NCBI GenBank assembly: GCA_019748175.1
Contig: JAIEPX010000004.1
Span: 49,115-113,114 of the forward strand
Length of the DNA: 64,000 nt
Source: Gammaproteobacteria bacterium
GTDB lineage: Bacteria; Pseudomonadota; Gammaproteobacteria; JAIEPX01
Direction of reading: 5' to 3'
Made by a program: the position numbers and the translations under genes
Part shown: positions 24,913 to 42,445 of the stretch, piece after piece
How the letters are laid out: each line of letters opens with the position of its first letter
How positions within the stretch are numbered: position 1 is the stretch's first letter
Notes under the pieces: model-generated
What the model saw: the letters and a program-made list of their open reading frames with translations, nothing else
What the model was told of the DNA's origin: nothing
Databases searched by the model: none

Positions 24913-25030
24913 TAGAAGGAACCACCAATGGTTCAGGTCATTTTTTGCAGCATCTATCGGGTAAGAGATATGTACGCTTTGCTCACACAATGTCCCAACT
25001 TAATGGTTGTTGTTTATGCCATTTCTAAAT
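24913..25030 (+). repeat. direct repeat copy B (diverged copy of 22981-23100), abutting the epmB remnant
   Basis: See copy A. Here the block continues directly into the epmB-derived sequence at 25014-25145. Confidence 0.75.
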
Positions 25031-25145
25031 CAATTGGTACTTTACTTAAAACGCCAGGCACCTCTTTAACTAATTTTGGCACTAAATAACCTGGCAATAG
25101 CTGCGCATCATCATTGATATTTCTCAAAAGCACTGCTTGATTATA
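25014..25145 (-). pseudogene. epmB: remnant of the epmB 3' end (C-terminal about 43 codons with an internal 47-codon deletion)
   Basis: 25036-25103 is identical (68/68) to 41448-41515. 25104-25143 matches 41657-41696 with 2 mismatches. The remnant reads NQAVLLRNINDDAQ|LLPGYLVPKLVKEVPGVLSKVPIDL, against NQAVLLKNINDDAQ..47 aa..LLPGYLVPKLVKEVPGVLSKVPVDL in the intact gene. CTG microhomology lies at the deletion junction. Confidence 0.85.
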
Positions 25146-25193
25146 TCGATTAAAATCCTTATTAAATATCACATACATCCTAAATTCGTTAAT

Positions 25194-25223
25194 CCGAGCG
25201 AAGAACTTTCGCACCTCGCTCGG
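25194..25223 (-). terminator. GC-rich stem-loop 11 nt downstream of the 1279-aa gene
   Basis: The minus strand reads CCGAGCGAGG-TGCGAAAGTT-CTTCGCTCGG followed by ATTAACGAATTT. The stem is 8 perfect bp extendable to 10 with a G-U pair. Confidence 0.55.
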
Positions 25224-25233
25224 TGCTTAATTG

Positions 25234-39420: not shown

Positions 39421-40242
39421 ATGCTTACAGACACAAATGTTGATGAGTTTATTTCTCAATATGGATATTATGAAAGCAAGATTAAAAAGATTACAGCATC
39501 TATTAAACGCCTATTTGATCTAGAATACTTTCTTTACACCTTAGTAGGTCACAATGGACAGATATTCGCAACTGGCACAGAAGTTAAATACCTTGAGTTT
39601 TATTTCAATAAGATGCTTTACCGCGCTGATCCAGTTTTGATTGAGCCCAAAAATACTCAGAATCGAATATCTTACTGTCATTCAAGCATGATTGATTCTC
39701 CAATTAGATTTCTTGCTGCACCATTTATGAATGAACTAAATCACGACAATATTTTACTTCTTCAAGAAACAAATAAATTAGGTGCTCATCATTATTTATT
39801 CGCGACCAATAAAAATAAGGGTTGCATCATAAATTATTATCTCAATCACTTAGAGGCACTGAAGATTTTTACTTCCTATTTCCAAAATGAAGCTATACAT
39901 ATAATAAATAAAAGCATCGAATCCACTCCTATTAATCTTTACAATCTCCCTAATGAATTTCTCAGCAAATCAAACTTTGAACCAAAAGACATCACACAAA
40001 AGCAACAGAATATCTTTCTTCAAAAACACAATCTCACCGAAATAAATACCATTACACCCAGAGAATGGGATTGCTTAAAGCTAAGCTTACAATCTATGAG
40101 CTCCAAAGAATGCGCTAAAATATTAAAAATTTCACATCGCACTGTTGAGTTTCATCTGGAAAATTTAAAAAATAAATTCAAATGTTCAAACAAAAAAGAG
40201 CTGATATCTAAAGCCTCTTTTATTTATTACGAAAAGGCGTGA
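39421..40242 (+). CDS. LuxR-family regulator (unknown N-terminal domain + C-terminal HTH)
   Basis: C-terminus: TPREWDCLKLSLQSMSSKECAKILKISHRTVEFHLENLKNKFKC. GGAG lies 8 nt upstream of the ATG. Confidence 0.8.
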   Translation: MLTDTNVDEFISQYGYYESKIKKITASIKRLFDLEYFLYTLVGHNGQIFATGTEVKYLEFYFNKMLYRADPVLIEPKNTQNRISYCHSSMIDSPIRFLAAPFMNELNHDNILLLQETNKLGAHHYLFATNKNKGCIINYYLNHLEALKIFTSYFQNEAIHIINKSIESTPINLYNLPNEFLSKSNFEPKDITQKQQNIFLQKHNLTEINTITPREWDCLKLSLQSMSSKECAKILKISHRTVEFHLENLKNKFKCSNKKELISKASFIYYEKA

Positions 40243-40356
40243 CTTTACTAAAAAAACTATCTCTTAAAAACCTGTCATTTCTATTATACAGTATTTATAC
40301 AGTATATACGGTTTTCTTTTTACGAGTTACCGTACTGACCATTGAATACTGAATAG

Positions 40357-41352
40357 GTGACATTTAACATGTTTGAGAGTCAAAAATTCACTGATGATGA
40401 ATATTCCGCTTATCACGATAAGGATTTTTCAGCATATAATGAATCAGCAATACTTCTTAATGACAAGATGCTGACCATGACTTTTTTTCGTTTCCGACAT
40501 AGGCAATTGAGGGATGATTCAACTAAATCTGCGGCGCTGAATCAGTTAGAAATACCCTATAACATGAGAGGTGAAATTAGTGTAATTATACAGCCACTCA
40601 AAAATTTTGGTATCGAGACTCTCACATATTCTCGATATTATGATACCGGAAGAGAAATTCTCTTGACAAATAACCCATCCTGGTATGACGAATATTTTCA
40701 AGTTCATCATTCATATGAGGAAAATAACGTATCAAATTCAGAAATTCAGTATCTCAAAAATAATAGAACGTCCTCCACATACAAACAAATCGATGAGAAG
40801 AATCGCTTAAGCATGATAAGATACCTCACAAATTACCGTGAGATATTCACATTCTCTGGCGATTCTTCTAATGAACACTTGAAGTCTTTTTATATAAATA
40901 ATATGGAATTATTCGACGCATTCATTCTCTATTTCGAAGAGCGAGCGGAGACAATTTTAAGTTTCTACGCTAAAAAGCAAATCAAATTTTCATCAAATAA
41001 TAAGCACCTTGAAAAGACTATTCATCAAGAATATCCATCACACTATGATTTAAAAAACTTAGCCATAGCAGAGATGAAAACACAGCAATATATTATTAAG
41101 GGGCGAAAAATAAAAATATCTAGAAGAGAGATTGAGTGTTTAGCCTTATTCCATTCTGGATACACTGCAAAAGAATCTGCTAAGTTACTAGGACTTTCTT
41201 TTCGAACGATTGAAAAATATTTTGAGGTTATAAAGGATAAATTAAATTGCCTATCCAAAAGAGATGCTTTAAAATTACTAATAGCTGACGGATTCCCTCA
41301 AAATGTTTTGAACTATTATTTAGTTACAGCTACAGATAATACAGCACCCTAA
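40357..41352 (+). CDS. LuxR-family regulator (unknown N-terminal domain + C-terminal HTH)
   Basis: C-terminus: SRREIECLALFHSGYTAKESAKLLGLSFRTIEKYFEVIKDKLNC. The start is GTG 40357 or ATG 40369. Confidence 0.8.
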   Translation: MTFNMFESQKFTDDEYSAYHDKDFSAYNESAILLNDKMLTMTFFRFRHRQLRDDSTKSAALNQLEIPYNMRGEISVIIQPLKNFGIETLTYSRYYDTGREILLTNNPSWYDEYFQVHHSYEENNVSNSEIQYLKNNRTSSTYKQIDEKNRLSMIRYLTNYREIFTFSGDSSNEHLKSFYINNMELFDAFILYFEERAETILSFYAKKQIKFSSNNKHLEKTIHQEYPSHYDLKNLAIAEMKTQQYIIKGRKIKISRREIECLALFHSGYTAKESAKLLGLSFRTIEKYFEVIKDKLNCLSKRDALKLLIADGFPQNVLNYYLVTATDNTAP

Positions 41353-41422
41353 TACAGCTGGCATAATATGCCTATTAAGCCTGGCTGTAGGAATCGTCTA
41401 ATATTTCACTATTGATCAAATT

Positions 41423-42445
41423 TTAGTTTTCAACCAATAAATCGACGGGTACTTTACTTAAAACGCCAGGCACCTCTTTAACTAATTTTGGCACTAAATA
41501 ACCTGGCAATAGCTGTGAAAGCTGCCAGTGAATTTCACGAGCGCGAGAAATCTCTACATCAAAATGCGCACTACCCACGACTTTATCAAGTGTATGTAAA
41601 TAGTATGGTAGGCAGCCACTAGAAAATAGTTTTTCGCTCAGCTCTGCCAATACCTGCGCATCATCATTGATATTTTTCAAAAGCACCGCTTGATTAAGGA
41701 CAGTGATCCCTGCTTTACGCATCATTTGCAGCGACTCTTCAACCGAATTATCAATTTCATTCGGATGATTCGCATGAACCACAACAATTATTTGCAATCC
41801 GGATTCTAATAACATAGCCGTAAATTCTTGCGAGACTCGATGAGGGATTACAATGGGTAAACGCGTATGAAGTCTTAAACGTTTAATTTGTGGCAAAACT
41901 GAAAATTGCTGAATAATTTGAGCAAGCAAATTATCTTTCGCGATTAACGGATCACCACCACTAAAAATTATTTCATTGATGCTAGGATCAGCAGCAACAT
42001 AATCAACAATTTTTTGCCAACCTGCACGTCCCGGATTATTTTCTTCATATGAAAAATTTTGCCTAAAACAATAGCGACAGTTGATTGCGCAAGCACCTGT
42101 AACCGTCAATAAAACTCGTCCGCGATATTTATGAATCAATCCTGGTAGTTTATTAGCTTGTTGCTCTTGTAACGGATCATGACTATAGCCTGGCATGGCT
42201 AATAATTCTTGTTTTGTAGGCAAAATTTGGAGTAATAATGGATCTCGAGGATCACCCATTCGCATTCGTGCCACATATTCGCGAGGGACACGCAGAGGAA
42301 ATGACAAACTATTGGACGAACACAAACCCACTTGCTCGGGCTTAAGATGAAGTAATTCCAGTAAAATTTTGGGATTTGTAATGACATCAACCAAACTTTG
42401 CTGCCAGTCTGGCGTTGGCTTTTTCACTAATCGCTGTTGATTCAT
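41423..42445 (-). CDS. epmB: EF-P beta-lysylation protein EpmB (lysine 2,3-aminomutase-like radical SAM)
   Basis: Radical-SAM cluster motif CAINCRYCFRQ. Collinear with YjeK/EpmB (LLTVTGAC, SGGDPL, RLHTR.P). Divergent from efp, with epmA downstream of efp. Confidence 0.9.
   Translation of the reverse strand: MNQQRLVKKPTPDWQQSLVDVITNPKILLELLHLKPEQVGLCSSNSLSFPLRVPREYVARMRMGDPRDPLLLQILPTKQELLAMPGYSHDPLQEQQANKLPGLIHKYRGRVLLTVTGACAINCRYCFRQNFSYEENNPGRAGWQKIVDYVAADPSINEIIFSGGDPLIAKDNLLAQIIQQFSVLPQIKRLRLHTRLPIVIPHRVSQEFTAMLLESGLQIIVVVHANHPNEIDNSVEESLQMMRKAGITVLNQAVLLKNINDDAQVLAELSEKLFSSGCLPYYLHTLDKVVGSAHFDVEISRAREIHWQLSQLLPGYLVPKLVKEVPGVLSKVPVDLLVEN

Follow-up and report, generated by a model that had tools for sequence, protein, structure and literature searches.

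Genomic islands of Legionella that are able to excise have tRNA or tmRNA genes as their sites of integration and encode integrases, often together with conjugation systems. Their excision through the integrase is reported by Lautner et al. (2013), as cited in PMC5704250, and the same source describes, for ICESt1 and ICESt3 of Streptococcus thermophilus, cis-mobilizable elements (CIMEs) together with accretion in tandem at the 3' end of fda, a protein-coding gene. Hot spots that are free of mobile elements and show recombination at the core genes on either side are also known (2017, PMC5635113). In addition, homology-facilitated illegitimate recombination (HFIR; de Vries and Wackernagel, 2002, and Prudhomme et al., 2002, as cited in PMC5361080) is proposed to strand orphaned 3' ends of genes, as in the orphan arrays of Rhs and contact-dependent inhibition (CDI) loci and in the displacement of effector-immunity genes of the Vibrio cholerae type VI secretion system (T6SS) (PMC5361080). 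In this study, we analysed a stretch of 64,000 nt (the window) from the Gammaproteobacteria bacterium assembly GCA_019748175.1 (contig JAIEPX010000004.1, positions 49,115 to 113,114), whose nearest relatives are uncultured Legionellales metagenome-assembled genomes. In this window an AT-rich block lies beside epmB, a gene of the pathway that modifies elongation factor P (EF-P). We report here that the block is a horizontally acquired island, unable to move by itself, in an insertion hot spot of an uncultured Legionellales clade.

The slot lies between epmB and p533, an orphan gene for a protein of 533 aa. The DNA in it is an insertion, because four related Legionellales genomes (L001, L002, L003 and L048) have an empty site in which p533 abuts or overlaps epmB; a first-pass annotation of the window had taken this DNA to be foreign and had proposed a search for an empty site, which was thus positive in all four. 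In three of them (L001, L002 and L048) the gene order is YkuD-OmpA-p533 converging on epmB-efp-epmA, and in L003, whose contig ends inside p533, the visible part shows p533 converging on the same three genes; in L001 to L003 it is the stop codon of p533 that abuts or overlaps the stop codon of epmB. Compared with these relatives, about 18.3 kb have been inserted (approximately 23098 to 41437), and the window reads p533, a module X of 1.8 kb, a fossil junction of 256 nt, a module Y of 16.3 kb, and epmB. The interval between the OmpA gene and epmB is found in four content states over seven lineages. It holds only p533 in L001, L002 and L048 (EpmB identity 92, 85 and 79%), and p533 is likewise the neighbour of epmB in L003 (EpmB 94%); it is empty in the outgroup L004 (EpmB 71%), where the OmpA gene directly follows epmB; it is filled by an AAA_14/DUF4143 ATPase and a methyltransferase in L050 (EpmB 75%); and it contains p533, X and Y in the window. 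X is absent from the slot in all relatives, and no orthologue of X at 90% identity or more was found in the sister genomes.

The 3' ends of both genes that border the slot are duplicated. For epmB, the first-pass annotation had described a 68-nt identical repeat, a further match of 40 nt, an in-frame deletion of 47 codons and a CTG at the joint, all of which were confirmed. The 68-nt block is a direct repeat, 100% identical and in the same orientation, of which the window contains just two copies at up to 3 mismatches (0 expected by chance), and the in-register similarity extends over 78 nt at 96% (25026-25103 versus 41438-41515). In the remnant the distal 40 nt correspond to 41657-41696, apart from 2 mismatches, and the 141 nt that the remnant lacks correspond to 47 codons; the joint, at 25103/25104, lies in a common CTG within a 13-nt imperfect direct repeat, CTGGCAATAGCTG / CTGCCAATACCTG. 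Beyond what had been noticed in the first pass, the 3' end of p533 is duplicated as well, there is a module X to the left of the AT-rich block, and the two modules are separated by a fossil junction. The p533 repeat comprises the last 60 nt or so of the gene and a spacer of 80-90 nt, and its copies, A1B1 at the working gene and A2B2 further in, are about 72% identical in p533 end and spacer and share a perfect core of 18 nt. A2B2 continues into the epmB remnant (C2), and A2-B2-C2 (24888-25143) is a complete fossil p533/epmB junction between X and Y. On both sides, therefore, an intact gene end lies beside the new DNA and a truncated 3' remnant lies beyond it (A1 versus A2 for p533, and the working epmB end, C3, versus C2).

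The copies of the two genes have diverged to very different degrees. C2 and C3 show just 2 differences in 111 comparable nucleotides, in addition to their different tails, and because of this the two duplications appear to be of very different age or origin, and X and Y to be separate events. By the same count the epmB copies are young, in agreement with the recent event that had been supposed in the first pass. Over the last 57 nt of p533, A1 and the L003 allele are 96% identical; A2 is about equidistant, at 67-75% identity, from the A1/L003 and L001 alleles, and is 54% identical to that of L002. The p533 ends of L001 and L003 are themselves 72% identical, which is the same distance as that between A1 and A2. 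The fossil A2 is a different allele from the working p533 end.

The working epmB gene is divergent from its neighbours efp (42688-43257) and epmA (43270-44256), and its product matches the TIGR03821 model with 455 bits (cut-off 369). The fossil C2 ends in VPIDLEMA and a stop codon, and the EpmB proteins of the relatives end in VPIDLEIT, VPIDLEIKY or VPINLDINF; the first 12 nt of the fossil tail are exactly those of L003. The working EpmB, in contrast, ends in VPVDLLVEN, a tail that is novel compared with the relatives. Beside the perfect block, 3 of 10 nt differ between working gene and fossil, and the final 15 nt are unrelated. As judged from these sequences, the ancestral EpmB C-terminus is kept in the fossil, and the extreme end of the working gene has come with Y. 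The integrative-style regeneration of the target gene put forward in the first pass is thus upheld in so far as foreign DNA lies at the epmB 3' end, but what stands there now is a new tail, the ancestral one being stranded in the fossil. The TIGR03821 model stops at residue 334, so that the new tail lies beyond the conserved domain; the whole of this domain is retained and the exchange is limited to the last four residues. The extreme C-terminal tail of EpmB therefore appears to be dispensable and exchangeable.

Table 1. Positions of the slot, its neighbours and the inserted genes in the 64-kb window
Feature	Position	Strand	Remarks
p533 (533 aa), orphan gene, left neighbour of the slot	21414-23015	+	intact
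A1B1, outer working p533 3' end and spacer	22956-23100	+	ends TCTAAAT(A/C)AA where X starts
Module X, 1.8 kb	23098-24887		NfeD and SPFH/paraslipin genes
X: NfeD	23291-23782	+	
X: SPFH/paraslipin	23793-24737	+	
A2B2, fossil p533 3' end and spacer	24888-25033	+	runs unbroken into the epmB fossil
C2, epmB 3'-end fossil	25014-25143	-	tail 25014-25035, 68-nt block 25036-25103, distal 40 nt 25104-25143
Module Y, AT-rich island, 16.3 kb	25144-41437		Pfam and GC
Y: SecA-DEAD-like protein, 1279 aa	25234-29073	-	
Y: NACHT-pentapeptide-WD40 protein, 1838 aa	29257-34773	-	
Y: PAS-LuxR regulator	34801-35619	-	
Y: EamA transporter	35743-36717	+	
Y: near-orphan, 322 aa	36823-37791	-	
Y: haem-oxygenase-like di-iron enzyme	37990-38826	+	
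Y: LuxR-type regulator	39047-39244	-	
Y: LuxR-type regulator	39421-40242	+	
Y: LuxR-type regulator	40357-41352	+	
Working epmB, EF-P beta-lysylation radical-SAM protein	41423-42445	-	TIGR03821, Pfam
New 3' terminus of working epmB	41423-41447	-	from the right end of Y; codons P-V-D-L-L-V-E-N-stop
Right copy of the 68-nt perfect direct repeat	41448-41515		inside working epmB
141 nt of epmB absent from the fossil	41516-41656	-	bounded by CTGGCAATAGCTG and CTGCCAATACCTG

Y differs in composition from its surroundings. The first-pass impression of an AT-richer interior is supported by a GC content of 33.8% (25144-41422) versus 39.4 and 40.1% in the flanks; in 1-kb windows the values are 33.6 +/- 2.3% in Y and 39.8 +/- 2.0% outside (Mann-Whitney p = 2.7e-8), and the lowest-GC stretch of 16.3 kb within the 64 kb begins at 25001. 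Effector regions of Legionellales typically combine a low GC content with eukaryote-like repeat domains and acidic C-termini. Y encodes four LuxR-type regulators, one of them with a PAS domain. For its SecA-like protein no homologue beyond the lineage itself was found among 5.8 billion proteins, and for the 322-aa protein there are 186 among 1.84 billion representatives, of which the best reaches 40% identity. When 72,556 plasmids were searched with the SecA-like protein and with 6.6 kb of the island's DNA, only generic SecA matches or none were returned, and PADLOC reported no defence system in Y, despite its NACHT and helicase-like proteins. With the 1838-aa NACHT protein, the 1279-aa orphan that resembles a SecA motor and the four LuxR-type regulators, this effector- and regulator-like gene set should be of interest for research on the Legionellales clade.

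The two proteins of X match the Pfam families NfeD, Band_7 and Band_7_C. The SPFH proteins closest to that of X are 88-90% identical at the amino acid level but 76% at the nucleotide level, and for NfeD the identity is only 48%. As the SPFH protein is 81-85% identical to Bacteroidota paraslipins, a recent transfer of X from Bacteroidota was considered; it was rejected because the best match, at 89% amino acid identity and from an unidentified genome, is only 76% identical in nucleotides and the adjacent NfeD protein only 48% identical in amino acids. The likeness to Bacteroidota simply reflects a very conserved family.

We found no genes for mobility. In agreement with the first-pass annotation, which had seen no integrase, transposase or tRNA, Pfam scans of all window open reading frames (ORFs) of at least 90 aa gave no integrase or transposase domain, ARAGORN gave no tRNA or tmRNA in the 64 kb, and Rfam had no match in the window. 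Y carries no replication, partition or mobilisation genes. No relics of an integrase, a relaxase or a conjugation system were detected, nor any from elements of the integrative and conjugative (ICE) or integrative and mobilizable (IME) kind, for which there is no coding space either; the coding density leaves no space for a decayed recombinase gene. When the ends of X and Y were compared for arm-type sites, their similarity was no better than that of shuffled sequence. Measured against a classical genomic island, the locus thus has the absence from relatives, the deviant GC content and the direct repeats, but lacks mobility genes and insertion at a tRNA or tmRNA gene, the site being the epmB 3' end. 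Around other inserts in the relatives no duplication of the epmB end was seen, the insert of L050 having neither an epmB repeat nor an integrase, and none of seven related loci, a small sample, has an integrase-bearing element at the epmB site. A degenerate 26-nt pattern of the epmB 3' end had no match in Joint Genome Institute (JGI) metagenome contigs, the 1838-aa protein led to no related locus in these contigs, and no other contigs were returned when the working EpmB, the SecA-like protein and the last LuxR protein were looked up by exact match.

Furthermore, recombination has left a signal in the flanking genes, so that differing content between the same core genes and recombination in the flanks are both found at this slot. 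At sites where L001 and L003 differ, p533 is 78% L001-like upstream and 80% L003-like downstream of a breakpoint near 22709-22721, about 300 nt before the stop and immediately to the left of the insert (maximum chi-square 56.6, a value reached in 0 of 2000 permutations). Patchiness is also seen in the epmB-efp-epmA block (p = 0.028), and the epmB-efp spacer is 98% identical to that of L003, compared with about 80% at third codon positions. Exchange between lineages is evidently frequent at this locus, and homology-driven acquisition at a hot spot is favoured here because of the recombination breakpoints in the flanking genes.

Some further observations concern the genes on either side of the slot. 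p533 had no match in Pfam or NCBIfam, and its C-terminus is acidic and rich in serine. Its orthologues, which adjoin epmB, are 78% (L001), 65% (L002), 72% (L003) and 55% (L048) identical in amino acids, and this range of 55-78%, compared with 79-97% for neighbouring genes, marks it as fast-evolving. The fossil p533 end can be read in frame through a spacer of 69 nt to the ancestral TTC TAA stop (ending in NGCCLCHF), and this spacer is bordered by CATTT repeats (regions 24888-25033 and 23016-23100); it may be former coding sequence that was lost in L003 by a 75-nt deletion and is cut off in the working copy by a premature TAG. The epmB fossil is part of a 66-codon ORF (25014-25214, minus strand) whose GTG start lies on the same strand as the SecA-like gene, 20 nt downstream of the stop of that gene. 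This ORF had no family match, and a promoter and terminator scan around the fossil was uninformative; the ORF could be co-transcribed with the SecA-like gene and yield a short peptide corresponding to the EpmB C-terminus. Between the divergent genes epmB and efp lies a palindromic element of 181 nt that resembles a miniature inverted-repeat transposable element (42475-42655) and has perfect terminal inverted repeats of 18 nt, ACCTGGATATTGTATAAA; L003 has it at 98% identity, and L001, where the spacer is just 59 nt long, lacks it.

How, and in which order, X and Y entered the slot is a matter of interpretation. It is best explained, in our view and with somewhat better than even probability, by homology-anchored acquisition in steps, at a hot spot without mobile elements. 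We infer two separate acquisitions, each of which would have put the intact end of a flanking gene outside and left the older end stranded inside. The likeliest route would be the cell's own recombination with DNA of a related strain that already carried X beside p533, or Y beside epmB, each event consisting, as in HFIR, of one homologous crossover in the shared gene and one illegitimate joint inside the 3' end of the resident gene. Alternatively, the same topology would arise if a circular intermediate bearing the gene end had entered by one homologous crossover. No integrase encoded by the island would be involved in either case. At a later time, the epmB fossil would have lost its 141 nt through slippage between the 13-nt imperfect repeats. 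The contrast expected between donor and resident alleles is found in p533, where the copies are 72% identical and the working one is 96% identical to L003, and is weak in epmB, where it amounts to 2 of 111 nt and the tail.

Several points weigh against this explanation. No donor genome with Y beside epmB or X beside p533 was found, which leaves the route through an anchor and an illegitimate joint, with any microhomology at such a joint, a proposal. With three taxa only, the mosaic in p533 cannot be assigned to the lineage of the window rather than to L001 or L003. The 69-nt spacer is common to both p533-end copies here and absent from L001 to L003, which complicates the view that the fossil allele was the original resident. 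In addition, a perfect 68-nt direct repeat with a gene 3' end also resembles an attL/attR pair, and X at its left end and Y at its right end border on one and the same ancestral octamer, TAAATCAA, for which a shared core site would be an equally good explanation. We attribute the common octamer, by inference only, to selection for the one permissive point between two abutting convergent genes, because DNA inserted elsewhere between them would destroy one of the two.

The main rival to homology-anchored acquisition is a decayed, still-excisable integrative element, which we consider rather unlikely. Y, and perhaps X, would then be CIME-like, the repeats of 68-78 nt would represent the attL and attR sites of a site-specific recombinase with the epmB 3' end as its target, this enzyme would now act in trans or have been lost, and X and Y would stand in tandem at the core TAAATCAA. 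Decayed elements arrayed in tandem at the 3' ends of genes are on record (PMC5704250), and this idea is consistent with the perfect identity of 68 nt bordered by mismatches on both sides, with the octamer TAAATC(A/G)A common to three junctions, and with a 16,410-nt contig of a second strain that ends 30 nt inside the repeat at both ends and would fit a circle as well. However, the locus has neither an integrase, a relaxase or a conjugation relic nor space for one, no integrase-bearing element occupies the site in the seven related loci, and the insert of L050 is a different one, without an epmB repeat. The middle site has both chromosomal arms and is a complete attB-like junction, where tandem accretion would be expected to give a hybrid of element arms; arm-type similarity is lacking between the ends of X and Y; and repeats that are 72% identical for X but about 98% for Y do not point to one family of events. 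It is less probable still, and in our opinion quite doubtful, that Y is a still-mobile, non-autonomous integrative element for which the 68-nt repeat is a functional att site, which excises as a 16.35-kb circle through a recombinase encoded elsewhere and swaps the EpmB tail at each integration; if this were true, an EF-P modification gene would be a new integration target and a Legionellales island would be mobilised entirely in trans. Site-specific or single Campbell integration, as proposed in the first pass, is not supported, as two modules flank a fossil junction and one integration into epmB cannot give this topology; single Campbell integration of a circle that carried the junction was also rejected, since it predicts the order p533, epmB remnant, cargo, p533 remnant, epmB, which differs from the one observed. 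Nothing points to site-specific recombination: no integrase-bearing element is seen at the site in relatives, and the ends of X and Y share no sequence. A single insertion of 18.3 kb with target duplication of TAAATCAA is conceivable, but would need an insert that itself carried a copy of the junction.

Two other explanations deny either that the block was acquired or that it is integrated. The block could be old and native to the clade, the empty sites of the relatives being secondary and due to deletion between direct repeats, and recombination between these repeats would indeed remove X or Y cleanly; moreover, the divergence of the X repeats, at about 28%, is of the order of that seen at third positions between lineages (17-28%). 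This is, nevertheless, the least probable of the explanations considered here, in view of the GC content of Y, 6 points below its surroundings, the absence of the block, of any scar and of any repeat from relatives at four depths including the outgroup L004, the lack of the 69-nt spacer in L001 to L003, the mere 2 differences in 111 nt between the Y repeats, and an ancestral EpmB tail that sits in the fossil and not in the working gene. We regard it as very unlikely, too, that the architecture is an artefact of assembly or state, in which the 68-nt repeat was misresolved or the population mixed and Y is a separate 16.35-kb circle beside a chromosome with an ancestral-type epmB directly after the fossil junction. 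Single-sample assemblies match the window at 100% across p533/X (L044), across X and the fossil (L040-L042) and inside Y (L046 and L047). Of the four joins, three are reproduced at 100% by independent sample assemblies. A second strain (ERR12387328) has the same architecture at 0.5-1.2% divergence: its left flank is 99.5% identical, it has the same p533/X join (L052, 99.5%), its 16,410-nt contig corresponds to 25074-41477 at 98.8% identity, and all island ORFs are intact in it. The assemblies made at k = 31 do break exactly at the repeat, L041 stopping exactly at 25103 and the contig of the second strain 30 nt inside the repeat on both sides, as expected at this k, and they fit an integrated island and an excised circle alike; also, the exact working EpmB protein is recorded only from the deposited contig of 130,659 nt. 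In that contig, however, Y is integrated, and ordinary reads of 150 nt span a 68-nt repeat. As a circle, Y would be without genes for replication, partition or mobilisation and without similarity among the 72,556 plasmids, and it would still hold a truncated piece of epmB that needs a history of recombination.

Outside the slot, some further features were noted. An AAA_14/DUF4143 ATPase and a small GIY-YIG protein are encoded near its right end (60298-62403), and the same ATPase family fills the epmB-OmpA slot in L050 (11167-12468). The ERR12387328 strain has an extra 1.4 kb (L052, 196-1572) with ORFs of 60 and 272 aa between window positions 12986 and 12999; it sits between a DnaJ/TerB-like gene and rpe and is another strain-variable insertion within 10 kb of the slot. 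A HipA-type toxin gene is split at 5413-6644 (minus strand) into an ORF of 102 aa (Couple_hipA) and one of 308 aa (HipA_C), within a lower-GC patch at about 2-7 kb (35-38% GC) that also contains two ORFs without a family match.

Compared with the systems described so far, the locus does not reveal a new kind of mechanism; what it shows is the gain of genes at a recombination hot spot, in a clear but unremarkable form. Its value lies in the fossil junction, the allele difference and the p533 breakpoint, which together form a readable record of how an effector-type island can grow without mobile-element machinery in an uncultured lineage of intracellular type. With the Legionella islands it has in common the order Legionellales, a low-GC accessory island, direct repeats and a cargo that looks like effectors and regulators, but it has no tRNA or tmRNA site, no integrase and no conjugation system. 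The epmB gene had seemed an unusual target in the first pass; however, integration at the 3' ends of protein genes is known, and because of precedents such as fda for elements of the ICESt1 type (PMC5704250) this kind of target is not surprising in itself. Like the CIMEs at fda, the locus shows foreign DNA at the 3' end of a housekeeping gene, direct repeats with the gene end, no integrase or transfer genes, and two modules in tandem. Unlike them, it lacks ICE or IME relics, in relatives the site is free of a cognate integrase-bearing element, its internal site is a full chromosomal junction and not a hybrid att site, and the working gene has gained a new tail instead of having its end regenerated. 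The hot spots of PMC5635113 resemble it in that the same interval between conserved genes holds varying accessory genes, without integrase or transposase and with breakpoints in the flanks. In those hot spots clean double crossovers leave no scar, whereas here both acquisitions left truncated 3'-end copies, and for this reason at least one joint per event was not a simple homologous exchange. With HFIR at Rhs and T6SS loci it shares the intact copy beside the new DNA, the truncated 3' remnant on the far side, the fact that a recombinase is not required and the build-up of arrays by successive events; it differs from them in that the cargo consists of 16 kb of unrelated genes and not of a replacement toxin tip, and in that the events took place from both sides of one junction between convergent genes.

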